DNA of 64,000 nucleotides from Giardia intestinalis (lineage: Eukaryota): the NCBI GenBank assembly GCA_000002435.2, contig CM018793.1; one strand, given 5' to 3'. Every line of letters begins with the position of its first letter. Position 1 is the first letter of the stretch. A program made the translations under genes and the position numbers. Below are positions 14,651-60,374 of this stretch, piece after piece. The notes under the pieces are model-generated. The model ran no database searches. It was given only the letters and a program-made list of their open reading frames with translations, and was not told where the DNA came from.

Positions 14651-15057
14651 GACAACATCCAGAGCCGTAGGCGGTTCATAAGAACACACAGAGACACAAC
14701 AAATATAATTAGAGACACACCAGCTCTTATTAGAGATTCAATCAAATAGCGTGTCTGCTCTTTGTTCGATGGTGCGATTGGAAGTGAAACTTGACGATTC
14801 CACGCCCTAACAGTTGTTATTGCAACAAGAGAGCTAGAAAGAAGAGTGCTGGGAACATCTCTGGCTAAAACAGCAACTAAGAACATGACGCAGGGCAGAT
14901 AAGCCTCGTATCTGGCCATTCTATTCGCACGGGCTTTCGTGTCGAGAGACGAGTAGAATGCTTCTGCAAAGTATAACAGCACGATAGACTGGTAGAGGGA
15001 GAGAACCAACTGGCTCAGTGCCAGGAACATTTGGAGGCTATGAGTCAGGATGAACAT
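14626..15057 (-). CDS. Possible small (143 aa) multi-pass membrane protein. It overlaps the 3' end of CDS 13961..14650 by 25 nt and the 5' end of the divergent ankyrin gene by about 27 nt.
   Basis: The ORF has an ATG start (plus 'cat' 15055-15057) and is very hydrophobic ('FLALSQLVLSLYQSIVLLYF', 'LPCVMFLVAVLA', 'GVSLIIFVVSLCVL'). The overlaps make it uncertain. Confidence 0.25.
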   Translation of the reverse strand: MFILTHSLQMFLALSQLVLSLYQSIVLLYFAEAFYSSLDTKARANRMARYEAYLPCVMFLVAVLARDVPSTLLSSSLVAITTVRAWNRQVSLPIAPSNKEQTRYLIESLIRAGVSLIIFVVSLCVLMNRLRLWMLSCIQLNFK

Positions 15058-18000: not shown

Positions 18001-18327
18001 AATAGTCTATTTGCTGTCTGGTCTTTTTTGCCCAGTCAGAAGGGAATGAAAGATGACCAAGGTATGACAGCCCTAATGCATGCCGCGATGCGTGGGCACA
18101 GAGATGTCGTACGCCTATTGAGCAAATACGAGCTACGGCTTCAAGACAACCATGGTCGAACAGCCCTGATGTTCGCTGCAGAACACTTGCATTCTCGTGT
18201 GTTGGAGTTTCTTGTGTCTGAAGTGGATTTAAAGGACCATGATAACAAAAGTGCTATCGATTATCTTCCCTCGCGGACAAACGCAAATGGCCCCCTCTAT
18301 GATTACTTTCTGGAGACTTTAGGGTAA
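15031..18327 (+). CDS. Ankyrin-repeat + coiled-coil protein of the Giardia 'Protein 21.1' type, 1098 aa. It has N-terminal ankyrin repeats, a central ~600-aa coiled coil and C-terminal ankyrin repeats.
   Basis: It opens with the family N-terminus 'W-F-x-A-I-x-x-G-D' (SQGWFGAITAGDAAEV). Ankyrin motifs include 'TTGLMYAAASDNEEIVQMLV', 'MTALMHAAMRGHRDVVRLL' and 'GRTALMFAAEHLHSRV'. The start could be ATG 15031 (MEAMSQ) or ATG 15040 (MSQ). Confidence 0.8.
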   Translation: MEAMSQDEHLKKIISSQGWFGAITAGDAAEVSRLCARFLRETDRTGTTGLMYAAASDNEEIVQMLVKDENSMRNHIGETALLIAAAQNSAKVIPLLLPYEHEMVLLNGATALHVAVQHGSMESIPQLVDCYSCARDRNGFTAMEYCAYNNLLPQLSLLVKHGSYTIEDLKHAASIADSAGHKLCAAALWKASNTYPGTSLRLSNLKLTTAHIDVPPNSAQSIDSLSGSRFTATSHSHPLTLTQLDAKQLQAAFHALSDEADTNGSPEGEGNNLAANHPNVVLASNNDPCENQGICMLNSMAECSASTSPSIFQGRQESVLVPDVPQGGNELVLSPSSLDSSLPLLASQLSGTDRSTQRSEVRILVEHLRSALEQARGDLKDKTVTILRLEEEVKKLTEKNVQRSSGFLSAAEALSLREEVAYYKHLLVKRDAHEKELKQEIGRLQNESTDVLSSLRCKIKQDQEHGKDLRLEEKGQSSAQVDSPESLSECSHNLCALAYAVKQLWTMLDAQEANLPVPDLVPETATIADILLSFKSLEVQLQRLTCDVSSRPRTDPPSSAKTILDANLDTSNEQIEQLIEELADSNARRRQLEEQLAEAQGSIDQYKQLAEAARSCQAQSEARLSQYFEVHRNELALITNEVNSAKETIARMIEGPVDNDVSVTTITDSLSSGSAKSLTYYVELVFTLINWYKGAMESIKQELEQLQADNDALRLTNAELKRLNDVLEHPIRLSSSNPDTAAMEAKIVALDAKNTDLHNELVDCRKKLYDLQKEVANYKDKLLTAHSSEELEAVKLRSHLSMYADAYKTLKDSSLSMGQELDMLRSELDLYRSLHGDIKERTESQPVDTDVTASRVYPSTLETSNLTAPSGPLSTTVIRQNVMTPLMIAAQQGSLRECKNNMQYVRQQLPNGMTALMFAASAGNKEIVELLAPHECSFIRHDNMCAAEVALTCGHYDCAELLRSAEALHTSKLGGMAEGMLSSIISAAISNSLFAVWSFLPSQKGMKDDQGMTALMHAAMRGHRDVVRLLSKYELRLQDNHGRTALMFAAEHLHSRVLEFLVSEVDLKDHDNKSAIDYLPSRTNANGPLYDYFLETLG

Positions 18328-18360
18328 ATGCAACTAAAATTTCGAGACAATCATTTCTCC

Positions 18361-20508: not shown

Positions 20509-20529
20509 TTGCAAAGGTGTAGATGAAGG

Positions 20530-20536
20530 AGTGAAC
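20530..20536 (+). terminator. Putative polyadenylation signal AGTGAAC (AGTRAAY), 22 nt after the TGA of CDS 18361..20508.
   Basis: Seen directly at 20530-20536. Confidence 0.45.
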
Positions 20537-20674
20537 GGCAATAGAAATTCATGCATGGACTAAGGTTGCGGCGGCTTGGTGCAAGCTATTCCAGGGTTCG
20601 GGCGGTTAAGCACACATGGTCAAAAAAACAGGGCATTTTTGGCGCCGGCGCCTTTAAAGGGAATTCAAAAAAGG

Positions 20675-27678: not shown

Positions 27679-30600
27679 CTACTCTGCCAAAAAAGCTAAC
27701 ATATAGGCCTCGTCTTCCCTATTTCTTGCTTGTTTCTCCGCTGATCGGAAGGTCATTTTGGCAAGTATGCGTAGCGCAGATTGGAAGCGGAATCCGTGAT
27801 TGGGTAGCTTGCATGTGTGCAGAAAGAATCGAAACAAGGATACAAAGAATAGGAACAGATTGCTCTCTTCCCACTGTAACGTTGTGTAGAAAATGCCCGT
27901 TGCTTGCTTGCGAAGAGAGTCTAAGTCTGTGGGCATACCTGCAGCTATAACAGAGTCTATTATGTAGTAACTATATTCAGGGAATATCCCGTTTGGCAGG
28001 CCAAATGCACAGTCCACTAACAGCTCTGCGACAGAGGCAGGATGTATGTACAGAGGGATGCGAGCCCAGTCACCCTTTGTGAGATGAATGTATAACTTAT
28101 TACTATCTTCAGCTGGCCCCAAAGAGACGAACAGGCTCCTTGTGCAATAGTATCTAAAGGACTGAAGCTCAGTTTTCAGTTTCTCTAGTAGTGGGTCTAA
28201 TACGCTTACCTCGCCTGACTGTGACATGTGTGCCCTTAAGCTCTCGATGCCAGTGATACAGAGGTGATAGAATAATAAGTAAAGCTTTTCTTTTTCTCTT
28301 TCATTGTCTATTGCAGAAAACTTCCGTGCTTGTGGTACAGGATCTGCTAAGCGATGTTGCTCAAGAAAAGAGCTAAGGGATTGGGTGGTAGGCCCAGTGT
28401 GTATGTGCGGGAAAACTGTCGCTATAAATCGAAGTGGAGTAGACGGGAGCTCCATATTGGTATCTTTGGCTTTCAAGGTGTCATACAGACCCAGCAAAAT
28501 GTCGTCTAACTGCTTAGTTTTAAAGGTGCAGTTCGAGGCCTGGAACGCTTGCACGGCACTGACATCCTGATTAGATGGAGATCCACTGGATAAAAATTCC
28601 TCAAAGTAATTAGCGATATTGATAAAATAACCAGGTACTAGAGCACTGCTTTTTTTAACGAGATCATGTAGAGGCTTAGAGAAAAGCGATTCTTTCAGTC
28701 CAAGGTATTCGATTTTGCAATTAATGGTTTCTGTAGCAATGACGTTGTTCCGTGATAATGTAGTTGCCCTTCCAGAGACAAAGCAGAGGCTAATCGTGAA
28801 CGATTGGAGGGATATCTTCTCGTCGATTATTTGCCTGAGAATAAAAGCTCGCTGACTTTCAAAGCTCTCGAGAGACAAGGTATCAGGTTTTTCAACGGTC
28901 TGCATCAAGTGGCGGATGTACGACGCCTGGACATTCGGTGGAGTATCCAAAAAGTAACGGAATCGGTGTAGCAACACAATCTCCCCTTGAGTCATGGCCT
29001 TGAGGGTAAAGCATGCCGGCCTCATATATATCCACGGTGGGGTAGTGATGGGGTCTAGCACAATATTCAATGAGGAAATGGGATGGTCATTTCGCAAAGG
29101 AAGAGGATGGGCTGTTTCCATTCCATATGAAACTCTTCCAAAGTCTAGTGTAGACTCAAGCAACGTGTAGCGTGGCTGCAGCTCCGTAGTAAAGATGGGG
29201 AGTCTACCAAGGATCTTAGCTTGTTCTGCCTTGAGTTTAGCGTCATCTAGAACTCGAACATTGATCGTGCTGAGGAGACAGACCGGATGATGATCACTGA
29301 ACTCAACTGCAGAAACAGACATGTACCCAATCGGATTGATGAGAGTGTCCTGAGAGAGCCCTCGGAATAAGATTCTGTCACAATATGCAGGAACCCTAGG
29401 TTTGCTTGCCTCAGGGTCAACTTCATAGTTTGGAATAGCGGTAGTATTACTGTTAGAAGGATGGCTTAACTGAGAACTTAGTGATGGAGCAGAGGAAACA
29501 GTGTCTACACATGCCTGGGGGTCCGGGGTAGTTCTTTCAGTAGCAGGCTCCGTAGAAACTACATTGAGGACATCAAAAAGATTGAGGGAACCACCAGGAA
29601 TGAGTTGCATGGGCTGACACGGAGCAGCTGGCGGCTGCTCCTGTTTTGGACCTTGCTTAGACTGAGCCAACTTCTTGGGCTTGCTTTTCCCCTTTCCTTT
29701 TTCCCCTATAAGTATTTTGTATGTAGGATTAAAGGAGATATCCATTTCTTTGAACCCATAAAGGTAGTTACATGGATCAAATGGATAGCTAAGATATTCT
29801 TCATAATAATTTGTATTTCCGGCCAGTGTTGGAGGGGTTACCTCAACATCATCGTCATCTGATTCTATGTCGGCGCCACTTACGGCCAAAGCGGCAACAG
29901 CAGCCGTTGCAGCGACATTCTGAACAAAAAACGTTGCGTCATCCTCTGCATCGACGTCGTCACCTACCCTCATGTTTTCATTAGCATACGTTGGAGTGTA
30001 CGAGCTACTGCTAAGCGCCCGTAACTGCATTGAGAGCTGATCAATTCGCAAAAATGTCCGTCGACCAACTTCACTGTCGGCCAAGAAGTGCTCTAGGATA
30101 AGGTGTGGCTTTGTTGAGAAGGTGTGCAAGCGATAGTTCAAGTCTCCTAAGAGGAATATCACGTCATGGCCCCTTAGAAGAGACGGAAACTTGGGGGTAA
30201 GGTTAGAATCGAAGTTACAATTGGCGAGACAATTAGTAAAGTTATAGTTTGGATTGACAATGGGATGATTTAGTTCATCCTCAATAATGTAGTCATCCAA
30301 GATTTCTACTCCGGGCTTGCTGTCTCGATGGTACAGTTCGAAAATAGTAGGCCCCCTCGGATCCTTGGGGGAGGTCGACATGCTAAGACGTGAAAGCACT
30401 TCGTAAATATCTCTGTTTCGTTTCTTAGGTCCATCAGGGGTTCTATTGGCTGACAGGTGAAGATTGCAGAAAAGAATTCTAGTGTCATAGAGCCTTATAG
30501 TTGCGGCAAGCCCACCTTTATTTCCACCTCGGTTCCACAAGCCCACACCGCATGCCTTAAATCCTTCCACGACGGCGCTTGCCGGTGGGCAGGTGATGCT

Positions 30601-31002
30601 TTTGTGCAGACCAATGACAAGTAAGAGGCCCATCATTTGTTTGTAGGACAATACATACTGGTCTCCAAGTACTGAAGCCACAGCATCAACCCAGGGCTGT
30701 GCACGACTGGTCTCGCCGACCATAAGGGCCTTTGCGGACATGTCGACTTCCTGAAAACCGATTGCATACACAAGAGGGCACGATGGCGCTGGAGCATCAG
30801 GAACTTGGTGCCTTGAAAAGTAGTGAAGCCATGGGCGCAGAAAAGACGAGTCCCCCGGAAACTTCCTGTTACCAACGTTAAAAGTCCCCGCAAATACCGG
30901 AAGTGGAAGATAGCTACTGAACTTTCCGAGCGAGAGCAGTAGCTGGCGGTTCACATAGGACGTCGGATCATAGAAGTGAGAGATATCAAACGACTCTCGC
31001 AT
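27679..31002 (-). CDS. Inositol polyphosphate 5-phosphatase (endonuclease/exonuclease/phosphatase fold), 1107 aa, with a long C-terminal extension (ASH-like and inactive RhoGAP-like regions, an OCRL/INPP5B-like layout).
   Basis: The ATG start is plus 'cat' 31000-31002. 5-phosphatase motifs appear in order: 'AIGFQEV', 'GNKGG', 'FCNLHLSA', 'DVIFLLGDLNYRL', 'PAYCDRILFRG'. About 550 aa follow the catalytic domain. Confidence 0.85.
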   Translation of the reverse strand: MRESFDISHFYDPTSYVNRQLLLSLGKFSSYLPLPVFAGTFNVGNRKFPGDSSFLRPWLHYFSRHQVPDAPAPSCPLVYAIGFQEVDMSAKALMVGETSRAQPWVDAVASVLGDQYVLSYKQMMGLLLVIGLHKSITCPPASAVVEGFKACGVGLWNRGGNKGGLAATIRLYDTRILFCNLHLSANRTPDGPKKRNRDIYEVLSRLSMSTSPKDPRGPTIFELYHRDSKPGVEILDDYIIEDELNHPIVNPNYNFTNCLANCNFDSNLTPKFPSLLRGHDVIFLLGDLNYRLHTFSTKPHLILEHFLADSEVGRRTFLRIDQLSMQLRALSSSSYTPTYANENMRVGDDVDAEDDATFFVQNVAATAAVAALAVSGADIESDDDDVEVTPPTLAGNTNYYEEYLSYPFDPCNYLYGFKEMDISFNPTYKILIGEKGKGKSKPKKLAQSKQGPKQEQPPAAPCQPMQLIPGGSLNLFDVLNVVSTEPATERTTPDPQACVDTVSSAPSLSSQLSHPSNSNTTAIPNYEVDPEASKPRVPAYCDRILFRGLSQDTLINPIGYMSVSAVEFSDHHPVCLLSTINVRVLDDAKLKAEQAKILGRLPIFTTELQPRYTLLESTLDFGRVSYGMETAHPLPLRNDHPISSLNIVLDPITTPPWIYMRPACFTLKAMTQGEIVLLHRFRYFLDTPPNVQASYIRHLMQTVEKPDTLSLESFESQRAFILRQIIDEKISLQSFTISLCFVSGRATTLSRNNVIATETINCKIEYLGLKESLFSKPLHDLVKKSSALVPGYFINIANYFEEFLSSGSPSNQDVSAVQAFQASNCTFKTKQLDDILLGLYDTLKAKDTNMELPSTPLRFIATVFPHIHTGPTTQSLSSFLEQHRLADPVPQARKFSAIDNEREKEKLYLLFYHLCITGIESLRAHMSQSGEVSVLDPLLEKLKTELQSFRYYCTRSLFVSLGPAEDSNKLYIHLTKGDWARIPLYIHPASVAELLVDCAFGLPNGIFPEYSYYIIDSVIAAGMPTDLDSLRKQATGIFYTTLQWEESNLFLFFVSLFRFFLHTCKLPNHGFRFQSALRILAKMTFRSAEKQARNREDEAYMLAFLAE

Positions 31003-31033
31003 CCCTTAATCTTTTATCTTGTTAAGCTCAAAA
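31003..31033. promoter_or_regulatory. A 31-nt A/T-rich bidirectional initiator region between the divergent 5-phosphatase and SR-alpha start codons.
   Basis: 'cccttaatcttttatcttgttaagctcaaaa' is flanked by ATGs on opposite strands. Confidence 0.45.
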
Positions 31034-32749
31034 ATGTTTGATCAATTGGCATTTGTCCACACTTCTGGGCTTGTTATTTGGCAGTCCACCAAGCAGCCAG
31101 ACACCTACCCGATTGATCACCTTATAACGCTGGTCTACGTTGAGAAGCGTGCTATTCCGTCTCCATATGTACTGGAGGGCTATGCCCTTCACTATCTCTA
31201 CATCAAGGAGCTCTCTATGTTTGCAATTGCAATTATTAAGCAAGGGCTAACTGTGTCTGGAGCAGAGGATATACTGCTTGCAATGACACACCTTTTCATC
31301 AAGGAGTATGAGGCCAGCATTCGTGTGCTTCCAGTAGAGTATGCAAAGGAGACGTATCAATCATTTGATGCCCAGTACGACGGAAATCTTAAGTCGCTTA
31401 TTTCAACTGGGAAAACTCTCCATGAACGGGGCTTGTCAGTACAACAGACTAACCAAGAATCTACAGCTAAAGACACCGCTCAATTGGATCCAGATAGTAT
31501 CGGAGACAAAGTGGTTGACTTATCTGCTGATGCTGCTTCTATTAATCTAGAAGACGTTAAAGCTAAGATTAAGCAAATGGCTTTTGAACGCCAGGAGAGT
31601 CTACGTGCCTCAAAGAGGCTGTCTGGCCTACCTGATAAGAAGAGTAATGAAACCACTCCTCAGGCTAAGAGGAACGATCGGCAAGTCGATGAATTCTTGC
31701 AGTACTCTAAAGTCGAAACTACAAAGTCTTCAGCCGCGAACATCATAGCAGAACCAGAGGTCTCGCAAGCTAGTAAGCCCTCTTCCATTTCTGATGCAAA
31801 GCACATCACGTTCACGCCTTCCAGAGAAGCCGTATTTGGATTGTTCAATAACAAAAAAGAACTGACAAGCAATGACGTCGAGAAGCTTCTTTCTTCATTG
31901 AGGCAAGCGCTTATTAATCAGAATGTTGCATCAGATGTTGCTGATGAGCTACTTAAGGGAGTGTCAGCCAGCCTAGAAGGAGAAAAGGTCGGGCTCTTTT
32001 CTAGAACCAAGTCCGTGGTCATCCAGGCACTCAAAGACAGCATTAGAAAGATAGTTCAGTTCGAGGACCGGTTTCTTATGAAAAGAATTTTAGCTTCGAA
32101 GGAGGAACGTGCAGCCGGACAACGGTCAAGGCCCTATGTAATATGCATGACTGGCGTGAACGGAGTTGGGAAAACGACATCGATAGCCAAGCTATTATAT
32201 ATTTTCAAGAACAACGGGCTTCGCTCGTTGGTCTGTGCTTGTGATAGCTTTCGTTCCGGAGCTGTCGAGCAGCTTCAGGAGCACTGTAATAGATTGGGAG
32301 CCACCCTCTATTCTCAAGGTTACGGTAAAAACGCAAGCGCTATAGCTAAGTATGGGATAAAGGAGGCGGAGTCTTTAAACTATGACATATGCTTAATAGA
32401 CACTACAGGAAGGCAGTACAACAACGGCCCACTAATGCAGGCTCTTGGCGCCCTGGTTCTAGAGAACGCACCAGATGTGGTACTCTTCGTTGGGGAGGCA
32501 CTCACCGGTAACGAGGGAGTAGAGCAACTAAAGCAATTTGATTGTGCACTTAAAAGCTACACAAATAGCCGTGGCATAGATGGAATCATTCTAACTAAGT
32601 TTGATACATGTGGAGACAAGGTTGGCGCGGCACTCAATCTCTGTTTCGTTTGCGATCTCCCTATACTCTATGTTGGTACAGGCCAGAGCTACCCAGACTT
32701 TGGCGTGCTGGATCCTTCACACATAGCAGACTTAATTGTGGGCAAGTAA
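31034..32749 (+). CDS. Signal recognition particle receptor alpha subunit (SR-alpha; SRX domain + NG GTPase domain), ~571 aa.
   Basis: The ORF track start is TTG, so I re-anchored on ATG 31034. The N-terminus 'MFDQLAFVHTSGLVIWQ' matches SR-alpha 'MLDFFTIFSKGGLVLW'. The NG domain has 'RPYVICMTGVNGVGKTTSIAKL', 'CDSFRSGAVEQLQEH', 'DTTGRQ', 'LTKFDT..DKVGAAL' and 'VGTGQSY'. AGTAAAC overlaps the stop. Confidence 0.9.
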   Translation: MFDQLAFVHTSGLVIWQSTKQPDTYPIDHLITLVYVEKRAIPSPYVLEGYALHYLYIKELSMFAIAIIKQGLTVSGAEDILLAMTHLFIKEYEASIRVLPVEYAKETYQSFDAQYDGNLKSLISTGKTLHERGLSVQQTNQESTAKDTAQLDPDSIGDKVVDLSADAASINLEDVKAKIKQMAFERQESLRASKRLSGLPDKKSNETTPQAKRNDRQVDEFLQYSKVETTKSSAANIIAEPEVSQASKPSSISDAKHITFTPSREAVFGLFNNKKELTSNDVEKLLSSLRQALINQNVASDVADELLKGVSASLEGEKVGLFSRTKSVVIQALKDSIRKIVQFEDRFLMKRILASKEERAAGQRSRPYVICMTGVNGVGKTTSIAKLLYIFKNNGLRSLVCACDSFRSGAVEQLQEHCNRLGATLYSQGYGKNASAIAKYGIKEAESLNYDICLIDTTGRQYNNGPLMQALGALVLENAPDVVLFVGEALTGNEGVEQLKQFDCALKSYTNSRGIDGIILTKFDTCGDKVGAALNLCFVCDLPILYVGTGQSYPDFGVLDPSHIADLIVGK

Positions 32750-32822: not shown

Positions 32823-35800
32823 ATGCAGGTTTCCATTATAAGCCCTAAGGGGGCTATTTGCACTTTTTGCACGCGCCCTGACGTTGCCATTGTAGCCCTA
32901 GAGTTCGAATCTCGCTGCCGCTTAGGGTTGGAGGACACCCCTATTCTATTGCAGTACACGAGCAAATCCGCAACATTTACAAATGAACTGAGCACACTAG
33001 GTGAATGCTTAGCTAACCTAAACGTAGTTTCGGTCGATTCTCTCCAGTTCCACGTTCTTCCTTTGGATTTAGCATCAACCCCCAATCACTACACATCTGA
33101 ACCTGAGACCGTCTTTGACCTGCTAGAAAGCTGGCAATATCACAAATTGGACACTATTTTGCTTTCATTTACCATATTGCACTACCAATCACTTGTAGCA
33201 GAGGCTCTTGTCAGCAAAAAGAACAAGCTAATGATTACGGCACACACGCAGCCCGATATATCACCATCTCACCCATTTCTGACCAGTCCCTTAGCAAGGG
33301 ATCTAGCTACGAAAGTAACCTCTGCAATCCTTCGTGCAATCCCAACCCATAATCAAAATAAATCCGTTGACTTAGGGATCTTTCAGCAGGAGATTGCTGA
33401 CTGGATTGCCATGGACTTGCGAGCGCAGCTATCCTTTAGTGTGATTGAGCAACATGTATTGAATGCCAGCTCTTGCTCTTCTGCTCACAGTCTTCCTCCC
33501 AGACAAGAGCGATTGTTACCAGGAAAGGAAGGATCACTACCCGATTCCCAAGTATCTTCTCTCCACAAGCTTGGACCTTGTGGGGTTAAGAATAATTCAG
33601 GCATAGACCATACTCACATGAATCCATCCCATAACACTATCCTCATAGAAAACCTGCAAAGAAGAATAGACGAGAGCGGGGCGTGCGCTCATCTGGACTG
33701 GGAAGTCGTGACGGCAAGTCTAGACGGGGTTGAAAACCCATTAGGAGTATCACCTGCATCGCCTCTTGTCCCGCTAAACCCCATCAGTTATCCACACTTT
33801 ACTCTGGTTTTCAGCTTCCCGGAAGATACAACCGACCGTAGGCCTGCCATCTCTCGGAGCTGGTGTATCAGTGACGAACACCGAGCTTCTCTAGACAAAA
33901 CCACTGCTATTACTGTTGATGCCCAGCAATCTCTGTCCAGCAACTTAGAGAATACCATCACCATCTCGCCTCTTTTAACATGTGACGAAGCATGCTGCAT
34001 TGTGTATGAATACGCCTCTAGCCAGTATGGATCTCAAAGGTTGGACCTTGCACTCAGAGTAACACGACCGTACGATCTTGTAATAAAGCAAAGAGGAACC
34101 TCTGCATATCTAGTTGGGATGGATTACTTAATCAACTATGATAGCGTTAGAGTTTGTCTAAAGAAAGCAGAACCTCTCTATGTTACTTTAGCCAACCGAA
34201 AAGAATTTGAAAAAGCCATGTCCGACACCCTGCTTGGCCATACATTTGAAAATATTATTTTCAACTTCAATTTTAAGCTGTTTCTGCAGGATTGCAATCC
34301 CACTAAGAGTACTTTGATTCATGCCGGAACCAGCTCTGCTTCTGAACCATCCGTTGGGACACCACCACTTTTTGATGACCAAATACTGGGAACTTTCGGT
34401 TCCATTGTGCATAAGAAGGATGTTATGAACCTTGAGTTTCAGCCCTTACTTAGGTCTCCTGCCAAGTCAATCGCAAGTCGAGAGACCTGCAACAGCCCTG
34501 CCTCTAGTATAGATCTTATGCGCTCTTCAAATTGTACTAAGCAAGCAGATGATGCAGAAGCGGAGAGGTTAGAGTCTACTCCATTTGAATCGTTGACTCC
34601 AGTCATTCCGAAAATACATGCTGAATCAGCGGCTAAAGGCATTGGCCGAGCCAATAGTTTCTTAAAATCACCTACTCTTGCGCCACTCAGAACGAATAGC
34701 GAAGAGAATGCAAGCATCTGTGCTGAATCTTATTCGTGGGACCCAAAGTTGCAACCTCTACCTTTGCCACCAGGCAATCGGTTCTATGATGATTACGTTG
34801 AGTACTACTCATTCTTGTCGTCGTCTACCTTCGATTTGTTGATCCAAAAGCGCTGTGCTGAGTATGCCAAAGATCCACTATCCTTTTATACACGATACTG
34901 TGGATCTGTAAAGGGAGTCGTTCGCAGGTGCCCCCTAAGATTTGCACCCTTGACTCAATTAATGAAGCGAAAGATTGTGCCAGACAAGCAATCCATGAAT
35001 CAGTCACACTTTTTACCAAGCAAAAAGCATTCAACTGCCACTGTTCGTTCCCCTGAAGAGTTGACAATAGTGGATATACGTACTCTTGACGAGGAATTAT
35101 CGGTGCGACTACTTGACGTGTCGCTTCCTCTAAGTAGCTTTCCAAAAGAGAACATTTCTAAATTTAAATCCACCAAATGGGGAACCCGTCCGTACAATGT
35201 CATCGATTATGCAATGCATATTGATCCACGCTACACAGCTAGAGTAGAAGCAGACTGGCTCGCTGAGTTACTACGTATTCTGTGTTTTTCAGATCAAAAG
35301 CTTTCTACCACAGACTCCAGCGGACCAATGAATAGACTGTCAACTCCTGTGCACAGAGCTGAAAGAAGGGGATCAGATGCTCAATTCAATGGAATGATAC
35401 AGAATTTAAAATATATTTTGGCTGACATAGATCAACTTCTTGCTGATCTGGGGGCATCGCCAATATTCGAAGAAGCATTCTATTCAGTAGAACAGAGCAT
35501 ACTTTCTCACGATAATTCCTTGACCAAATCATTAGACTGCAAGAGCTCTGAAGAGTTCCAGCGTGGTCCTCAAAAGTTACCCGAGGATACTACTCCGCTC
35601 AAAGAGCGGGTCTCCCTAGATTTACACTTGGCAGATCTTACTGTCCCACCTCCGCCGATCACTGACACAGCTGACGAGATTTCTTTCAAGCGGCAATGCA
35701 AAAGGACAAGCGTGAAGGATACTTCTCAAGTGGACCCAGCAGAGTCCCTCCTTGTTTCTTCTAAAGCCTCACAGGACATTCTTAAGATCAATACAACATA

Positions 35801-38800
35801 CGTATTCACTACAGTGGCCCAAATCCACGTCGGAACAGAACCAATTTCAGATAAAGCTTTTGCTGGCTATGCGGCCCTTGAATTCAGTGAAGTTAAGAAA
35901 GCAGAGGTTGTTTGCAAGCTACACTATGACACAACTCTTAGTTTTAAGAACTTCCTCACCAAGTTCCTCCCTTTTGGTGCCCAAATAGTATTCACAGTAT
36001 ATGCCGTGAACAAGAAATCTCTCGGTCGTTTGATACAGGCCGCGAATGTCACTAATCAGCTTTTCTCGCAGTCATATATCAAACTTCTCAATGAAAAGCA
36101 ATCCTCTATTCTGCAATCATCCAACCAAAGTGTGTCTACGATGTTCATAGAAACATATGATGGGCTCCTAGCCGATAGTTCAACTCTGATACTAGGTAGT
36201 GTGAGCGTACCATTCTTTGATTCTTCTGGGGCTCTTTCACGGCGAGTGTATGAGGTGCCACTGTGGCCAGGAACAGACGCTAGCGATGTCCTTAGCATGC
36301 TTCTATTTCGCCCATACACACGGGGAGCTATGCGCATAAGCTTTGAGTTTCCGATAAAGTCGACCGAAAAAGTGATCAAGTCCTTAAAATTCTCGCCAAT
36401 GGTTATTAGCACGGATCCATATAAGCCACCTACAGAGGAAACCCTTGTGATGGCCTCCTCGAACGTTAGTATTCCATCTGGACAGAATTCTAGGTCATCA
36501 TCTAAGACTCGTTCAGCGTCAAACAAGCGTTCAACCAGTAGATCTTACTCAACGCGCGGAAGAGGTGCATCTAGGCGGCGAAATGCATGTAACACTATTG
36601 TTGATAAAGATGCCCCTGTCATTTTTAGCGAATTCAACCCCCTGTCATTAATTGGGGCCACCGCACATATGGAAGCAGAAGAGGTTAACAAGCCGTTTAA
36701 CACTTTTATCTCTTCACGGCCAAAGTCAAGTAAAAGTCGCACAAGACAAAGCATTTTCAAAGACAAGAAAGACGACAGGCGTGCCAAGCAGTCACCCTTT
36801 AGTAGGCGTACGCAGTCCAAGGTAAGAGTCAGTAACCGTAGTTCCTTTTCGTCACAGAAAGACGGAGATGATAGGTCTTCGTTTTCAGGGATCGCCTTAT
36901 CCTCATCATATACTAAGCACAATCCTGCCTCTCTACACAGAGACTCTGCATATGACGCTACCTACGACGTCCCCGAAGACGACGGTATCTCCAAGAACTA
37001 TGGCACTCGGCGTAGCAGTGCCTTCAGCTGTACCCAAGCTGTGTTCCAACGTAAACTTACTACAACGATTGAGTACAGCACAGACAACGAATTGTCAGAT
37101 ACATCCATGCTTCCCCCAACGCTAAAAGCTGTTGCCAGAAGGGTTTCCTCTAATAGCGATGACAATGCGTACAATGACAACCCAGAGGACCAGCACAATG
37201 AAATAGACGTAAGCCAAAAGCGAAATTACTACCTAAAGCTTCTCTGCATCCTGAAGTCGTATATCGAAACCAACAACCAAGATACCCACTGGGGAGATTA
37301 TACTTTTTCCGTCTGTACAAAGTTAGAGGCACTCTCTCCTTTTCTAACATACCCTTTGACATATCTGACAAAACTAGAATACCAGCATCTGTGGGAATAC
37401 AAAGACCTAGCCCTTTGCGATCCTGTTCTGCTATTTAGACTAAGCCAATCTATAAACTATAAAAATAAAGATTCTGTTCAAAGTTTCTATAACATTCTGT
37501 CCGCAAAGAAAATAGAAGACGTCACACTGGATACTGTCATGAACCTCTTGGCTAGCGCTCAAACAGATCCAATCATAAGAGGTTTTGCTGTTTCTGTTCT
37601 AAACACCTATTCTTCTTATGATCTCGAGCCTCACATCATGCAACTAGTCGAGCTATGCAAGTATGACATGGTCAATGCGGGCTTAGCATCTTTCCTCATA
37701 AGAATGGCCATTAAGGAGTTCCCAACATTCGGCTACCCTCTCTACTGGGCTTTTCGCTGTGAGATGCGGCTAAATCTTGTTTTTAGCAGTGCATACTCTC
37801 TATTCATGCTTAAAATCTTACTACATCTGCCAGAAAATCAACGAAGAAGCATTATTCTTACTGAATTACTACTTATTATATTACTTAAACTGGCCAAGTT
37901 CTCCTATCGGAAGAAGAAGGAATCCATCGATGCTAGTAAGGGCACACAACTTCGTGACGTGCCCAGCTTTATAGGACGCATAAACAACTTACTCACAAGA
38001 CTAAAGAACATATTAAAAGTGGATTGCTTTAAGCTGCCTCTATCTTACGACATAAAGTTGGCAACCTTCTGTGTGGTTGAGTGTGCTGTTCTTTCTAGCA
38101 AGAAGGCACCGCTACTCCTTTCCCTGAAAACAGCTGACGGCGCTTTCAACTACAAGTGTCTTTTTAAGACTCACGATGACCTGCGGCAGGACAGCCTTGT
38201 GCTCCGCACATTTTCATATATCCAAAACGTATGGTACAACAATAATATTAATCTGGCAATGAAGGTATATAGCTGCGTTGCAACAGGGCCATTCGAGGGT
38301 TTGATAGAGCTTGTTCCCGACTCTGAAACTCTGGGGTCCATAGAGCATACGTTTGGGGGTGCTAGGGGAGCATTTGCGAGGGGCCCTATCATGAAGTGGC
38401 TAGTGGATTCAATAAACCTCCACGACGAGGAATTTTTACGTGTACAGAAGAATGCACAACATAATAATAGTTTGACACAGGAGATGAGGTACAGCCTGCT
38501 ATTAGAGCCAGAGGATGACAATCGGGCGAGTGAGACTAGTGAGCTGACCATCTCTGATGTGGAGCAATCTGTCCTGAATAAGGGATACGACGACACCAAT
38601 CAGGGCCTATTCAATACCACAGCCAGCGTGCCTACGACTCTTAACACTAGAAGTCTCTACTCCAAATCTTCACGAGATAGCATATTTCAATCCGTCTCTC
38701 AGCTCTCCCTCATACAGAAGCATACAGCAACAAGGTACACCCAGATGATATCCAACTACCTTACGTCAATAGCAGCATACTGTGTGGCAACTTGCATTCT

Positions 38801-39290
38801 TGGTTTGGGCGACAGACACAATGACAATATAATGCTATGCCAGGACGGTACCTTTTTTCACATAGATTTTGGTCACTTTCTTGGTAATTTTAAAAAGAAG
38901 TTCAACTACGAAAGAGAGCGGGGACCATTCTTCTTCATTCCAGATATGGCTTTTGTGCTTAAGCACCATGACTACGTTAATGGCACAGAGTATGAGAAAT
39001 GTTTTGAAAAGATGTCAGCAGATGCCCTACTAGCAATCAGGCACCACAGCAGCGCTCTGATAAGCCTTTTTACGATCATGATACCCTCTGGTATCCCTCA
39101 GCTGACATCTCGGGAGGATGTGCAATGGATTGAAGACCATCTGTTCCTAGATATGAGTGAGTCCGAGGCGCACAGACACTTCATTCGGCTTATCCACGAG
39201 GCAGAACGATCTAAAAGATACTTGTACAACAACATGTTTCATATTTTGGCTCACTACAAGAAGCGGCGAGGAAGCGCCTCCTCCAACTAA
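32823..39290 (+). CDS. Phosphatidylinositol 3-kinase catalytic subunit, class-I-like, ~2155 aa, with a large low-complexity insertion.
   Basis: The C-terminal catalytic domain '[53 protein letters not shown]' matches class I 'GIGDRHNSNIM...[28 protein letters not shown]'. The ORF track start is a GTG inside the SR-alpha 3' end, so I re-anchored on the first ATG 32823 ([10 protein letters not shown]). A basic insert of roughly 140 aa, with Ser/Arg-rich stretches ([29 protein letters not shown] ... SKSRTRQS ... [18 protein letters not shown]), lies upstream of the kinase domain. Confidence 0.85.
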   Translation: [2155 protein letters not shown]

Positions 39291-49033: not shown

Positions 49034-50539
49034 TCAGTGTCTCCCCAATGACATGGTAACGTCACGCTGAAGAGAAATGGTACGCCCCTGTTTGAGCACA
49101 ACCGTGTTGCTGGCTCTCAGAGCCAGAGAAGCCAAAAACAGAGAGGCTGCCATTCGTCTCGATGATCCGGCTAATTCTGAAATCGAAAGGGGTGCCGAGG
49201 ACTGCCTTAGCATGGACAGCAATGTCAGCCCACTTTCGGGTATACTATCATGTTTATGTGAGTGGCTATCACCCTGTGCTGAAGCTTTTTCATTGAGTGG
49301 CGAGGCTTCACTATAGTCCGGCTCTGGGGGCTCCTCACACCCCACGGGAGTAGTGACCATGCAGTCCTCCTCTGGAAGATCTTCTTGTCTGAAACATTTC
49401 CAATTCTCCGAGACAATGGTCGCTAAGTCATGATACTCTGGCTCAGACCAATTGAAAGTGATATCTGGTTTATTGACTACCTCTTGAATTGGATGCCTAT
49501 CTCTAAAGTCTATGAAGATGGAGGCTACTACTTGATCTGGTGGCCTATACGCATACTTCTGCATAGTACTGTGATGCATACGTGCCTGCTTATCGAAAAG
49601 GAATGATGGGGGTCTGGTTCTCTTTGCAGCGACTGTGGCAGTGCTGCTCTTCTTCGCTGGATTCTTTATCTCTCTAACGGTGACGGTAACATCTGGAAGC
49701 TTGTCAGAGGTATTGGCCAAGAAAAGGCTCGTCAACTTCTGCGAGGCCTCCAGAAATGCGCTGCCAGACACATCAAACGCGTGTTTGGACAGCAAAGAAC
49801 TATGCATGGCATGCCCAGTGACAACCTGGCTTGTATCGAGGTCATTGAGCCCAATTTCAGAGGTGGCACGTACAAGCTCCCCCTCGACCGCACGGACTTG
49901 CATGTCGGCGTCTGAATTATTTGCCAAAGAAATAGAGCCCATCATACTATCATGGAAAGGATCTTGTGATTCTGGATTGGTGAGGGAGAAGGGAACATTT
50001 GTTGCTTTAGAGAATGACAGTAGATCGCTTTCAGTATCTTCTTTCAGTAGATTGGCCCATACACCCCCTGGTAACTGGTGTACAAAATCGAGATTTCTTG
50101 GATATTCTTGGTCTTCGAGGCTGTCCTCTTTAGATTGAGTGCCAAATATGGAAGAGATCAGCGCATTATGCCGAGTAGTCTTATTAGCTACAATGGTAGA
50201 GAAATGTAATGAGAGACCTAGGGCTCGTGGGCCTGCACTCTTGGCCACTGCTGAAGAAGCCTTCCGAGTGGATTTGGCCAAGGACAAAAGCTGGTGCATC
50301 TTACGCGCAACGCTAAGCACAGTGGATGATTTGTATGTTTGTATCAAAACGACACCAGAGAGAATAATGGAAAAATCCTGCAGAGTGCTATAATTTGCTT
50401 TTAAAAGCACTTCTATGAGTGTCGCTAATCGGACGCTTCTAAGAGAAGCGCTTGCAATGTGGCCAGTAAACCCCGATGTCCATACAGTCAGCACTGCGGG
50501 GTTGTCCTGCGCAGACTCCTGCGGCTCGGCCACTGTCAT
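49034..50539 (-). CDS. Hypothetical protein of 501 aa, a candidate divergent Rad21/Rec8-like kleisin.
   Basis: The ATG start is plus 'cat' 50537-50539. The N-terminal segment 'DFSIILSGVVLIQTYKSSTVLSVARKMHQLL' resembles the kleisin N-terminal helix '[30 protein letters not shown]'. The C-terminus 'SSRRMAASLFLASLALRASNTVVLKQ' resembles the kleisin winged-helix 'SRKQAARTFYYLLVL....I.LEQ'. This rests on recalled motifs, not a search. Confidence 0.5.
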   Translation of the reverse strand: MTVAEPQESAQDNPAVLTVWTSGFTGHIASASLRSVRLATLIEVLLKANYSTLQDFSIILSGVVLIQTYKSSTVLSVARKMHQLLSLAKSTRKASSAVAKSAGPRALGLSLHFSTIVANKTTRHNALISSIFGTQSKEDSLEDQEYPRNLDFVHQLPGGVWANLLKEDTESDLLSFSKATNVPFSLTNPESQDPFHDSMMGSISLANNSDADMQVRAVEGELVRATSEIGLNDLDTSQVVTGHAMHSSLLSKHAFDVSGSAFLEASQKLTSLFLANTSDKLPDVTVTVREIKNPAKKSSTATVAAKRTRPPSFLFDKQARMHHSTMQKYAYRPPDQVVASIFIDFRDRHPIQEVVNKPDITFNWSEPEYHDLATIVSENWKCFRQEDLPEEDCMVTTPVGCEEPPEPDYSEASPLNEKASAQGDSHSHKHDSIPESGLTLLSMLRQSSAPLSISELAGSSRRMAASLFLASLALRASNTVVLKQGRTISLQRDVTMSLGRH

Positions 50540-50554
50540 ATTAAAAATTTAACG
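50540..50554. promoter_or_regulatory. A 15-nt A/T-rich bidirectional initiator ('attaaaaatttaacg') between divergent ATGs (kleisin-like on the minus strand, NEK-like pseudokinase on the plus strand).
   Basis: ATGs lie at 50539..50537 (-) and 50555..50557 (+). Confidence 0.45.
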
Positions 50555-51463
50555 ATGCTTAAGCTTCCTGAGTACAGGCATGGGAAAGAGGTTGTGTTGT
50601 CAGCATCAGAGTTTTCCGTTACTTACCGAGCCATCAGACTGAAAGACCTGGCCGATGTTGCTGTGAAAGTAACGGATACCGTGAAGCTGGCGGAATCTGG
50701 GCGTTCAGACTACCGTCACGAGTCTCGAGTACTTCAGAATGCAGTGCATCCGCATATACTGCGCGCTGTGTATGGATACTATGATGAGGAGACCAAGAAG
50801 TTCCTGTTAGAAACAGAGTACTGCCGCGGTGGATCTCTTTGGGGACTAATGGCCTGGATGCGGAAGAGTGATATGCGTTTTTCTGAGCAAGAGGTCTGGG
50901 AACTGTTTGCTCAATTGGTGAGTGCATTGCACTACCTGCATAAGACCAACGAGCACATTGGGATAACTGCGCATTTGAATCTTCGCCCTGACAACGTTCT
51001 TCTTACTCAAGACGGTATTTTGAAACTTTGTGGCTTTGGATATAGCGCTACTAGGGAGCCCAACAAGCTATTTACGCTGCGCAATCCTGGAACCGCCTAT
51101 CATGCCCCCGAGGTTGTAGCATTTACCAACTCTCAAGGTAGTAGTGAGGGGTACACGGAAGCAGCTGATATCTGGAGCCTTGGCTGCATGATTTATGAAC
51201 TCTGCACGTTTAGGCGCATAGAGAATGAGCCTGTATCGTCCTTCAACCCATTACCGGAGAACCTTGAAACACCAGGGTATGCGGATGACCTTCTCATCCT
51301 TATAAAGGCGTGTCTTGCTCCCAACCCCAGGGAGCGAATCACAGCAGAGCTTCTTATGGCCAGTCCCCCAATTCAAGCCGCATACGCTAGAATTAACGAT
51401 ATCTTGAAAGCAGGAAGAAAGTGGTCTGGGCTGATCATAGAGATGCAGCGTGAACTGCGTTAG
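50555..51463 (+). CDS. NEK-like Ser/Thr protein kinase fold, predicted catalytically dead (pseudokinase), ~302 aa.
   Basis: The ORF track start is GTG, so I re-anchored on ATG 50555 (MLKLPEYRHG). Kinase subdomains are present ('AVKV' VAIK-Lys, 'YHAPE', 'DIWSLGC'), but there is no GxGxxG loop, HRD is replaced by HLN ('HLNLRPDNVLL') and DFG by GFG ('LCGFGYS'). Confidence 0.8.
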   Translation: MLKLPEYRHGKEVVLSASEFSVTYRAIRLKDLADVAVKVTDTVKLAESGRSDYRHESRVLQNAVHPHILRAVYGYYDEETKKFLLETEYCRGGSLWGLMAWMRKSDMRFSEQEVWELFAQLVSALHYLHKTNEHIGITAHLNLRPDNVLLTQDGILKLCGFGYSATREPNKLFTLRNPGTAYHAPEVVAFTNSQGSSEGYTEAADIWSLGCMIYELCTFRRIENEPVSSFNPLPENLETPGYADDLLILIKACLAPNPRERITAELLMASPPIQAAYARINDILKAGRKWSGLIIEMQRELR

Positions 51464-51539: not shown

Positions 51540-51734
51540 ATGGAGGAGTGGCTATTGACTCTAATTGTGACGTTATCCATTGTTTCGTCGTCGCTTGTTA
51601 GCGCTACAATCTACTATACGGTTCGGTGTATTCGTGCGAAGAGGACTAAGCGCTCACACTCATCATCGCGTTCGCACTCCTCACAGCCGGAGTCTGATAA
51701 GAATGCCAGCGAGAGATCAGACAATATAGACTAA
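51540..51734 (+). CDS. Possible small single-pass membrane protein of 64 aa with a hydrophobic N-terminus and a basic Ser-rich tail.
   Basis: The ATG is preceded by 'ccaaaataaaaatcATG'. The sequence is 'MEEWLLTLIVTLSIVSSSLVSATIYYTVRCIRAKRTKRSHSSSRSHSS...'. It is short, so uncertain. Confidence 0.3.
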   Translation: MEEWLLTLIVTLSIVSSSLVSATIYYTVRCIRAKRTKRSHSSSRSHSSQPESDKNASERSDNID

Positions 51735-58982: not shown

Positions 58983-60374
58983 TCATGTGGCATATGCATC
59001 AGCTCCATAGCAATCAGCTACATTGATAAGTACGGTGCCCCTTGTTTCCACGTGACAGAGCTGGCAAAACTCTCCAACAAGACGCCTCTCCTTGTTTTGA
59101 AACGTATAGTGACAACAGGGCAGCCTCAAAATGCATTGGAATCCAGTAGGGCAATAGTTAGGGAGGTTACGCATCACTGAGATCTTGATTGATCGCTCCA
59201 CTCCGTTGCGCAGCTCACTGATGCGTGCCTTCTTTGCGGCCAGGTCGTTGTGAAGTATTTGCCGAGTAGAGTCATAAATTCGTATTAGTTCTATTATGTT
59301 TTCACGATCAATATATGTTGAAATATTAGAGCTACTACCGAGGGCCGAGGGCCTAACAGACCTTGCTGTCAGGGCACCTTTGGTGTCAGATAAATTAGAA
59401 AGGGCAAGCCTGTCCTTTGGGAGATTCCGTGCACTTTTTGACTCGACTGCATGCTGAACTACTTGGGAGTTACCCATTGTCTCAAAAGAGCTGTTAGAGA
59501 TATCAAGCTTTGGTACAACCGCTTTCTTCGCCTGAGCTGAAGAGTGATAGCTATGAGATACTGATGTAGATTTCCTGGGGGTACTTACTGGACTACTAAG
59601 GACAGTGATCATCCTGTTAATCCCTCCGGAAACACTTGTCATATTATTTAGTTGCTTATCAAACCTGGCACTATAGTTTAGGGCATGCCGCTCTTCGCTA
59701 TAAGATAGAGGCGCATACATCTTCTTCTCCCGTCTTTCTGACCGTAGCTGATGCGTCTTGAGAATAAGAGGTTCGGCCTCCTCGCCATTGACACGAGTCT
59801 TCAAGGGTAGTAACAATTTGATATACTGCTTGATGCTGCACTTCTTATCATGAATGTCTCGCGGCGTGATTGGGTGTGCTCGTTCAACGGTGTTGCCAGA
59901 TTTCTCTATGACAGGCTCATCTCCCTGTGGGGTGTTACCTCTTACAGTCGTGGTACTGAAAGATAAATTGGAAGCCAGAATAGAAGGGAGCGAAAGATCA
60001 CGCAAACGGTTGGGCGTATCCTGACGTTGGTCTTTGAAAATAGTAGGATGATCAATGCTTGGCTGATAGCCTGTCAGAGACTGGTTACTCTTTGGAGACG
60101 ATGCTTCTTTATTACATAAATCCGGAGCAATGCCTATAACTTCTTTAGCTCCACGAACAGATGATGAACACTGTTCTCGACTGAATGATTTGATCGATTG
60201 TAGGGTCGTAGTTGCCAGTTCAGAAGACTTAGCAGGCGAATTCCCCATCTTTGCAATCTCAGTAACCTCGCCTAACGTTCCTTTCTGCATGGGTAAGAGC
60301 AACAAAAGCGCCAAATAAATCCTGCCTCCTTTGCCGTAAAATTTATATCCCATGGAACTGGATTTCGGTACCAT
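58983..60374 (-). CDS. Hypothetical Ser-rich protein of 463 aa with a C-terminal Cys/His cluster (CPTGFQC..PCCH..FCQLCH).
   Basis: The ATG is plus 'cat' 60372-60374. An alternative internal start 'MGNSPAK' has an N-myristoylation-like context. Its 5' end overlaps the divergent RSPH9-like gene. Confidence 0.5.
   Translation of the reverse strand: MVPKSSSMGYKFYGKGGRIYLALLLLLPMQKGTLGEVTEIAKMGNSPAKSSELATTTLQSIKSFSREQCSSSVRGAKEVIGIAPDLCNKEASSPKSNQSLTGYQPSIDHPTIFKDQRQDTPNRLRDLSLPSILASNLSFSTTTVRGNTPQGDEPVIEKSGNTVERAHPITPRDIHDKKCSIKQYIKLLLPLKTRVNGEEAEPLILKTHQLRSERREKKMYAPLSYSEERHALNYSARFDKQLNNMTSVSGGINRMITVLSSPVSTPRKSTSVSHSYHSSAQAKKAVVPKLDISNSSFETMGNSQVVQHAVESKSARNLPKDRLALSNLSDTKGALTARSVRPSALGSSSNISTYIDRENIIELIRIYDSTRQILHNDLAAKKARISELRNGVERSIKISVMRNLPNYCPTGFQCILRLPCCHYTFQNKERRLVGEFCQLCHVETRGTVLINVADCYGADAYAT

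Follow-up and report, generated by a model that had tools for sequence, protein, structure and literature searches.

Two genes of Giardia intestinalis WB, GL50803_6485 and GL50803_14223, lie head to head in the 64-kb stretch of DNA analysed here (the window). Both of their ATGs, at 50539 on the minus strand and 50555 on the plus strand, are followed by long open reading frames, and only 15 nucleotides separate them (Table 1). This gap between divergent start codons was claimed in the original prediction, and the coordinates, the reference proteins and the orthologous loci all agree with it. On WB scaffold CH991768 the spacer occupies 770158-770172, a window position x being equivalent to 820712 - x.

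Table 1. Coordinates of the features at the 15-nucleotide spacer and at two other divergent gene pairs of the window
Feature	Position	Strand	Details
GL50803_6485, hypothetical protein, 501 aa	49034..50539	-	exact match to KAE8305170.1
Start codon of GL50803_6485 (CAT)	50537-50539	-	agrees with reference annotation
Spacer, 15 nt	50540-50554		ATTAAAAATTTAACG, given also as attaaaaatttaacg; read directly from the sequence
Start codon of GL50803_14223 (ATG)	50555-50557	+	agrees with reference annotation
GL50803_14223, NEK-family pseudokinase, 302 aa	50555..51463	+	exact match to KAE8305171.1
Core TTAAAAATT	50541..50549	.	invariant in 5/5 lineages; contains both predicted start sites
Predicted kinase initiator ATATTAAAAAT	50538..50548	+	PWM 15.0 bits, rank 4/111,390
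Predicted GL50803_6485 initiator TTTTTAATATG	50537..50547	-	PWM 7.4 bits, rank 69/111,390
Spacer, 31 nt, inositol 5-phosphatase 4 (ATG 31002, -) / SRP receptor alpha (ATG 31034, +)	31003..31033		reference proteins match exactly
Corrected spacer, 61 nt, GL50803_17279 (ATG 60290, -) / radial-spoke-like gene (ATG 60352, +)	60291..60351		

At orthologous loci in four of the five Giardia lineages, the spacer is 15 (A), 14 (E), 14 (B) and 13 (Y) nucleotides long. These indels of 1 to 2 nucleotides do not keep a reading frame across the spacer, which shows that it is non-coding. The GL50803_6485 start codon is kept in the same four lineages. In lineage X the ATG beside the A/T patch is lost and an ATG eight codons further in is used instead, indicating that tight coupling is not essential in that lineage. 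All five other divergent spacers in the 64-kb window are longer, yet by the standards of the genus Giardia a gap of 15 nucleotides is unexceptional; intergenic regions have a median size of 81 bp in WB versus 37 bp in G. muris, and 9.5% of G. muris genes overlap (PMC7641422).

The GL50803_14223 protein matches Pkinase with E=7e-38. Its catalytic motifs carry HLNLRPDN in place of HRDLKPxN (HRD to HLN) and CGFG in place of DFG, and these are invariant in five lineages. The designation as a pseudokinase is well founded, since the kinase fold is present but both the catalytic Asp of HRD and the DFG Asp that binds Mg are missing. Conservation includes the N-terminus (MLKLPEYRHG), and no in-frame ATG lies upstream of the start in lineages A, E, X and Y. 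Further in, no ATG occurs in frame before codon 99, and a protein starting there would lose the N-lobe, including VAVK. A 333-aa model of the assemblage B kinase was rejected, as the 14-nucleotide spacer places an upstream ATG in frame. Prokaryote-style gene calls in Logan loci, with GTG starts and truncated or extended open reading frames, were also rejected. For WB trophozoites, Table S1 of PMC3610916 gives an expression value of 88.7 FPKM for GL50803_14223.

The GL50803_6485 gene codes for a hypothetical protein for which no literature mention was found. A stop codon is located 1-4 codons upstream of its ATG in all lineages, and no alternative ATG occurs before codon 82. Residues 13-80 are strongly conserved and residues 2-12 are poorly conserved, with indels; a start at codon 82 would drop the most conserved block. 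The label 'kleisin-like' given to this protein is at best tentative, as its only basis is a pair of sub-threshold matches. One is to Pfam Rad21_Rec8 (PF04824) at residues 455-485 (E=0.026, 14.3 bits, below the cut-off of 22.7), and the other, by hhalign, is to human RAD21 at the same C-terminal place (E=0.16, with an approximate RAD21 sequence). There is no N-terminal match to the Rad21_Rec8_N domain, and a PDB profile search returned no match. Among 1.84 billion representatives, phmmer found homologues only within the G. intestinalis complex (another Giardia lineage). The gene is not among the rows of Table S1 listed down to about 38.5 FPKM (PMC3610916), and thus it is either expressed below about 38.5 FPKM or outside the four-way orthologue list.

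An invariant core and initiator matches on both strands

A search of both strands of the 64-kb window finds the core TTAAAAATT a single time, versus 0.46 expected occurrences. Four-fold degenerate sites are invariant across the five lineages in 19% of cases overall and in 26% for A/T sites, and lineage A has a pairwise identity of about 0.49 with lineages B, X and Y. With four-fold sites as a neutral proxy, the five-lineage invariance of the core has P of approximately 3e-7 to 6e-6. The element is under purifying selection.

At the kinase N-terminus the protein is conserved and the DNA is not, indicating that these codons are coding: within codons 1-20, 8% of the amino acid-invariant degenerate codons are identical across all five lineages. 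Synonymous identity over the first 40 kinase codons is 8-14% versus 18% gene-wide. The corresponding values for GL50803_6485 are 33% for codons 1-20 (n=6) and 25% for codons 21-40 (n=16), versus 19% gene-wide. Promoter elements embedded in the first codons of the neighbours were rejected as lacking support from synonymous-site conservation, in a test that uses 12-16 amino acid-invariant degenerate codons per 20-codon bin (6 for GL50803_6485 codons 1-20) and has little power against extra promoter elements within flanking coding sequence. A separate, weak synonymous conservation signal was seen in GL50803_6485 codons 41-60 (p=0.01, uncorrected).

Genome-wide TSS-seq in Giardia found an AT-rich initiator (Inr), which extends from -5 to +5 relative to the start site, as the sole consensus within 150 nucleotides (PMC3792122). 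We built an initiator PWM from the variants in Table 3 of that study and scored 111,390 window positions. Nine of the top 60 matches fall within 60 nucleotides upstream of a gene start on the same strand, versus about 0.9 expected in the window, and the count becomes 11 of 60 after two further genes are added (binomial P=2e-8, computed on 10 of 60). Matches to the PWM are thus about 10-fold enriched ahead of the gene starts of the window, and the published consensus predicts where genes begin in this region.

Two scored sites, of ranks 4 and 69 (Table 1), overlap the spacer. The plus-strand site ATATTAAAAAT has one mismatch to the listed variant AAATTAAAAAT, and its predicted start site at 50543 would give the kinase mRNA a 12-nucleotide leader. 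The minus-strand site TTTTTAATATG has one mismatch to the listed variant TTTTTAAAATG, which has the same 3-nucleotide-leader geometry, and its predicted start site at 50542 would give GL50803_6485 a 3-nucleotide leader. The minus-strand match is only moderate. These two 11-mers overlap over 10 of 11 base pairs. Their PWM ranks support the earlier suggestion of an A/T initiator common to both genes. Near-leaderless mRNAs had also been anticipated, and both predicted leaders are within the range of 1-14 nucleotides reported for Giardia, where translation proceeds without scanning (PMC3610916).

For about 135 bp to the left and right of the spacer, the sequence contains no A/T run of at least 7 bases. 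The nearest other such run is at 50399-50406, and none occurs rightward before 51300. The DNA 25-35 bp from each predicted start site is GC-rich, and no second AT-rich element was found 20-35 bp upstream of the predicted start site of either gene. AT patches were observed at 50389-50406. A scan for bacterial sigma-70 promoters and terminators, which is irrelevant to a eukaryote, yielded nothing meaningful.

The spacer as a putative promoter for two genes

An AT-rich Giardia initiator, AATTAAAAA, was reportedly described by Holberton and Marshall, and AT-rich initiator core promoters are said to have been characterized by Yee et al. (GDH) and by Elmendorf et al. (alpha2-tubulin). The ran/phd head-to-head region of Sun and Tai is reportedly 153 bp long. 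By comparison, the spacer described here is about 10 times shorter and holds one AT patch, whereas ran/phd has two exchangeable patches, and the start sites at our locus are predicted.

Bidirectionality is an inherent property of Giardia promoters, and two sense mRNAs arise from head-to-head pairs (PMC1885649). Cases have been seen in which transcription between adjacent genes initiates in both directions from one and the same nucleotide (PMC3792122). The present locus resembles these bidirectional promoters (PMC1885649; Tolba 2013 Fig. 6A,B) in that head-to-head genes have a common AT-rich region, the 'upstream' transcript would be a productive mRNA and not a sterile antisense RNA, and transcription in the two directions is predicted to begin at one nucleotide or at two adjacent ones. 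Like Giardia Inr promoters, its element is composed only of A/T, is located within 15 nucleotides of an ATG, and is near consensus on both strands. Characterized Giardia promoters extend over 50-60 bp and include two AT-rich elements (PMC1885649, PMC12209930). In the classical dissected examples, one AT element is TATA-like and lies some 30 bp upstream, whereas the 15-nucleotide locus has none on either side. The original prediction presented the spacer as an open puzzle. It is better described as a clean example of promoter behaviour that 5'RACE, reporter assays and TSS-seq have already documented in Giardia (PMC1885649, PMC3792122).

It is likely that the spacer is a single A/T-only patch in which TTAAAAATT holds two almost completely overlapping Inr elements, one per strand. 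RNA polymerase II would initiate at the T/A junction of either strand, and because the start sites are on adjacent base pairs, the two mRNAs would leave back to back. Leaders of about 12 nucleotides on the pseudokinase mRNA and about 3 nucleotides on the GL50803_6485 mRNA would allow translation to begin with no scanning step, the usual mode in Giardia. Neither gene has a second TATA-like AT element, and therefore sequence-specific core elements outside the patch are unlikely; the patch might suffice for both genes. The stronger plus-strand match may favour the kinase. Overlapping antisense transcription, which had been expected at this locus, is not predicted by such an arrangement. Its best start sites are adjacent and point apart, and thus transcript overlap would be from 0 to about 10 nucleotides at most.

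A more far-reaching proposal is that the two conserved genes have no cis-acting promoter other than TTAAAAATT, a nearly symmetric sequence of 9 bp, with opposite initiation on adjacent base pairs. We advance this tentatively and lean somewhat against it. If true, the element would rank among the smallest bidirectional Pol II promoters in nature, and would be a substrate for studying how a pre-initiation complex without TFIIB, a factor missing from Giardia (PMC12209930), picks its direction.

Alternatively, the 15 nucleotides might be necessary but not sufficient, with promoters that reach 30-60 bp into the coding sequence of the neighbour, such that 15 nucleotides driving two genes would be an illusion of annotation. 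The classical Giardia promoter is indeed about 60 bp long with its TATA-like element about 30 bp upstream (PMC1885649, PMC12209930), and extra AT-richness strengthens Giardia promoters (PMC1885649). However, the flanks lack other long A/T runs, TSS-seq finds the Inr alone as a consensus (PMC3792122), and synonymous-site conservation over codons 1-40 is not above the gene-wide level in the kinase and is slightly, not clearly, above it in GL50803_6485, all of which make this explanation unlikely. It is rather doubtful that the spacer instead carries two independent unidirectional initiators that overlap in space and are separately mutable, rather than one bidirectional element. Such a model accords with Tolba et al., who view much apparent bidirectionality as adjacent unidirectional initiation and contend that consensus symmetry does not predict bidirectional use (PMC3792122), and with the 31-nucleotide pair (Table 1), where a distance of 15 bp separates the best initiator-like sites of the two strands, at approximately 31015 (-) and 31030 (+). 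Against it stands the same-nucleotide initiation noted above, and with 10 of 11 base pairs in common the distinction between one and two initiators is largely semantic.

A misannotated start codon, with one gene beginning at a downstream ATG and a much longer intergenic region, is very improbable. An error of this type did happen at the third pair (60374 versus 60290, see below), and the poorly conserved residues 2-12 of GL50803_6485 would fit with it. However, use of the next ATGs (kinase codon 99, GL50803_6485 codon 82) would remove conserved N-terminal parts, the N-terminal residues of the kinase are conserved while synonymous change is free, and the reference and P15 annotations concur.

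The spacer would be well suited to a question left open by Teodorovic et al., namely the bidirectional firing of a single Inr that has no TATA-like partner (PMC1885649). The locus has modest value as a natural minimal case, in which one 9-bp A/T element is kept between two conserved genes in five deeply diverged lineages.

Other divergent pairs in the window

Two more gene pairs had been put forward as showing the same pattern. The spacer between the genes for inositol 5-phosphatase 4 and SRP receptor alpha (SR-alpha) is 31 nucleotides long as claimed, in agreement with the sequence and both reference proteins, and both gene labels hold. The SR-alpha N-terminus, MFDQLAFVHTSGLVIWQ, is conserved out to G. 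muris. The orthologous spacer is 30 nucleotides in P15 and 27 nucleotides in another lineage, and G. muris SR-alpha has a 10-nucleotide spacer.

The pair assigned to ATGs 60352 and 60374 was based on a wrong start codon, and these two ATGs would produce open reading frames that overlap by 23 nucleotides. The minus-strand gene starts at M29 (60290) in 4/4 orthologues and in the current WB reference, and in-frame ATGs upstream of this position are present in assemblage A only. The conserved start leaves the true spacer of 61 nucleotides. For annotation and for Giardia biology the outcome is routine, with both start codons at the 15-nucleotide spacer confirmed and a third corrected (60290, not 60374).

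Orthologous loci just beyond the window have head-to-head spacers of 24-35 nucleotides. We also noted a 768-nucleotide array that was missed by Tandem Repeats Finder, which has a period limit of 500.

The 15-nt junction and its start codons

Exact-sequence look-up of the six proteins at the three divergent gene pairs matched five of them to reference entries for Giardia intestinalis WB (ATCC 50803, 4.02-Mb chromosome). The predicted labels of 5-phosphatase and SRP receptor alpha (SR-alpha) are both correct, as is that of pseudokinase for the NEK kinase GL50803_14223. This protein has a kinase fold (E=7e-38) with HLNLRPDN for HRDLKPxN and GFG for DFG, invariant across lineages. For its minus-strand neighbour GL50803_6485 (6485), the label 'kleisin-like' is based on two sub-threshold matches at residues 450-489, both to the C-terminal winged helix of Rad21. 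Because the N-terminal match is absent, a PDB profile search gave no match, and homologues outside the species complex were not found, a possible kleisin identity is treated as a lead only.

The kinase and SR-alpha (GL50803_14856) are listed at CH991768:769249-770157 and 787963-789678, with 88.7 and 129.8 FPKM, respectively (Table S1, Franzen et al. 2013, PMC3610916), and therefore the window lies on scaffold CH991768 as 820712 - x. The kinase transcript is thus detected, and 6485 is not among the Table S1 rows listed, the lowest of which is at ~38.5 FPKM.

Window positions of genes and sequence features at the divergent pairs
Feature	Position	Strand	Remark
Hypothetical protein GL50803_006485, 501 aa	49034-50539	-	exact reference match
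'Kinase, NEK', 302 aa	50555-51463	+	exact reference match
Inositol 5-phosphatase 4	27679-31002	-	exact reference match
SRP receptor	31034-32749	+	exact reference match
GL50803_0017279, 435 aa		-	third pair; exact reference match
CAT (6485 start)	50537-50539	-	read directly
15-nt spacer	50540-50554		read directly
ATG (kinase start)	50555-50557	+	read directly
A/T-only run, 15 nt	50538-50552
Invariant run TTAAAAATT	50541-50549
Initiator match ATATTAAAAAT	predicted start 50543	+	15.0 bits
Initiator match TTTTTAATATG	predicted start 50542	-	7.4 bits
Third-pair spacer, 61 nt	60291-60351

The divergent ATGs of 6485 and the kinase are indeed separated by only 15 nt (...ccactgtCAT attaaaaatttaacg ATGcttaag...). 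We compared the orthologous locus in four other Giardia lineages, namely assemblages E (isolate P15, NCBI annotation) and B, and lineages X and Y, which were recovered from SRA assemblies. Identity at four-fold degenerate sites is 72% for assemblage A (WB) versus E and 48-50% for A versus B, X or Y, and therefore these comparisons are deep. The junction reads CAT-A-TTAAAAATT-TAACG-ATG in A, CAT-TTAAAAATT-TAACG-ATG in E, CAT-TTAAAAATT-TAGCA-ATG in B, CAT-TTAAAAATT-CGAT-ATG in Y and TGT-A-TTAAAAATT-TGAC-ATG in X. Spacer lengths are 15 (A), 14 (E), 14 (B) and 13 nt (Y), and thus indels of 1-2 nt abolish the reading frame across the spacer on both strands.

Together with the following three observations, these indels make it very unlikely that either gene of this pair truly starts at a downstream ATG. 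No in-frame ATG is found upstream of the kinase in A, E, X or Y, and a stop codon lies 1-4 codons upstream of 6485 in all lineages. The next downstream ATGs are at kinase codon 99 and 6485 codon 82, and either start would remove conserved domain sequence. Moreover, the protein encoded by kinase codons 1-20 is conserved, yet of the amino acid-invariant degenerate codons in this stretch only 8% are the same across the five lineages. Since the protein is kept while degenerate codons vary, this segment bears the signature of translated sequence.

The tight abutment of the two start codons is not obligatory, because the 6485 start has moved in lineage X. Its CAT beside the shared A/T patch is changed to TGT, and the start lies 8 codons inward (orthologous loci L004, 2961-3003, and L016, 19362-19400). 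If transcription in this lineage begins at the same initiator, the 6485 leader would measure about 27-29 nt. In assemblage B (BAH15c1, locus L013), a 333-aa kinase model overlaps its neighbour by 64 nt (18573-19574 vs 19511-21016). This model is probably an annotation artefact, arising because the 14-nt spacer brings an upstream ATG into frame. The same record uses CTG/TTG starts for some genes.

A predicted A/T initiator on both strands

TSS-seq has revealed an AT-rich consensus that runs from -5 to +5 around a central start A; its commonest 11-mers are listed by Tolba et al. (PMC3792122). We made a weight matrix from these 11-mers and scored 111,390 window positions. The spacer matches rank 4 (plus strand) and 69 (minus strand), bearing out the proposed A/T initiator in both directions, and each 11-mer is one mismatch from a listed consensus variant. 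The minus-strand site shows the common geometry of a 3-nt leader then ATG. The matrix is informative in the window because its top matches are enriched upstream of gene starts: 9 of the top 60 lie within 60 nt upstream of a same-strand start in the first gene list, versus about 0.9 expected. Two more precede genes missing from that list, a giant ORF (9828) and the 64-aa GL50803_27878 (51540). With 10 of 60 matches before gene starts, a binomial test gives P = 2e-8.

The predicted start sites occupy adjacent base pairs and diverge, with leaders of 12 nt for the kinase and 3 nt for 6485. Overlapping antisense RNA, which the original prediction expected, is therefore not predicted at this locus.

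Sequence comparison indicates that the spacer is under selection. The run TTAAAAATT is invariant in five lineages and ties for the third-longest such run in a 2.5-kb alignment with 49% invariant columns. Relative to four-fold sites (five-way invariant 19%; A/T sites 26%), nine invariant positions in a row have P about 3e-7 to 6e-6.

Synonymous conservation is also raised at about 50360-50420 (6485 codons 41-60), where 7 of 15 amino acid-invariant codons are identical in five lineages vs 32 of 192 elsewhere (Fisher p=0.01, uncorrected). This segment includes the invariant runs TATAATTTGC (50389) and GGAAAAATC (50369), and may mark a cryptic promoter within the gene or some other overlapping signal.

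A proposed single-element bidirectional promoter

The 15-nt spacer is a real, conserved and functionally constrained feature. We propose that the polymerase machinery would open DNA at the A/T patch. Giardia has a highly divergent TBP and no TFIIB (PMC12209930). Teodorovic et al. (PMC1885649) propose that this absence allows complexes to assemble either way round on degenerate AT-rich elements. For head-to-head genes, the 'upstream' transcript would be the neighbour's mRNA (after PMC1885649). Translation from short capped leaders proceeds without scanning (PMC3610916). We infer where transcription starts, that the patch is sufficient, and how the two directions compare in strength.

Unlike the classical Giardia promoter of ~60 bp, whose initiator is preceded at ~30 bp by a TATA-like AT patch (PMC1885649), this locus has one AT patch. 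No second AT-rich element lies nearby: the DNA 25-35 bp from either predicted start is GC-rich, and one has to go about 135 bp to reach the closest other run of at least 7 A/T bases (50399-50406). In a test of low power, conservation at synonymous sites of codons 1-40 does not clearly exceed the gene average for either gene. A single element fits the TSS-seq conclusion that no consensus besides the initiator exists within 150 nt (PMC3792122).

The six divergent spacers in the window measure 389, 194, 31, 15, 66 and 61 nt, and two more of 24-35 nt occur in orthologous loci just past its right edge. Intergenic regions have a median length of 81 bp in WB and 37 bp in G. muris, in which 9.5% of genes overlap (PMC7641422), and Tolba et al. 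(PMC3792122) count 928 bidirectional pairs of start regions with significant expression within +/-5 nt. Thus, the locus falls within a well-known distribution, at its short end. Because the spacer exemplifies the Giardia initiator and bidirectional promoter already documented, it is of a known kind and its novelty is low. With its single element, it would offer a natural test case for a question left explicitly open by Teodorovic et al. (PMC1885649).

In G. muris, the gene head to head with SR-alpha (MFVQFCIVHVSGLVLWQ...) is a different one, encoding 233 aa, and lies only 10 nt away (L019 5988-6003, CM016926.1). The spacer is TTTTTTGGCC, without an A-run.

Other gene pairs and neighbouring initiator sites

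The original reading was mostly right, the exceptions being the antisense RNA, the kleisin label and the third pair. The second pair has the 31-nt spacer described (CCCTTAATCTTTTATCTTGTTAAGCTCAAAA). For the third, ATG 60374(-) and ATG 60352(+) would give a 23-nt ORF overlap. The minus-strand gene starts at Met29 in all four orthologues and the current WB reference, and in-frame ATGs upstream of it occur only in assemblage A; the table gives the true spacer. A CCATGG palindrome at 60351-60356 carries ATG on both strands (60352 plus, 60353 minus). The minus-strand ATG 60353 is in frame with GL50803_17279 but is missing from other lineages, and the conserved start lies elsewhere.

The giant ORF (1-9828, minus strand) encodes at least 3281 aa and continues past the window's left end. 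It has about ten tandem 768-nt (256-aa) units at 738-8261, with GC of 0.64 vs about 0.46 elsewhere, and ankyrin repeats at the far end. The initiator match AATTTAAAAAA (start 9845), 17 nt upstream of its ATG, is the second-best in the window. At 18325-18361, Protein 21.1 would abut Ankyrin repeat protein 1 (15040-18327) with 0 nt in between if it began at its first ATG (18328). The reference start of Protein 21.1 is 11 codons later (715 aa), right after the A/T run TAAAATTT at 18335-18342, which fits the initiator logic.

GL50803_27878 (51540-51734) is annotated in P15 and also found in other lineages, and its product is predicted to contain a single hydrophobic helix. It starts 7 nt downstream of the strong match AAAATAAAAAT (start 51533, 13.3 bits). 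Three of the eight best matches, at 38892(+), 35408(+) and 15060(+), have no annotated ATG after them. The first two lie within the PI3K-like gene (32823-39290), on its sense strand, and the third is 20 nt inside the 15040 ORF. All three are candidate cryptic AT-patch promoters of the kind known from Giardia.
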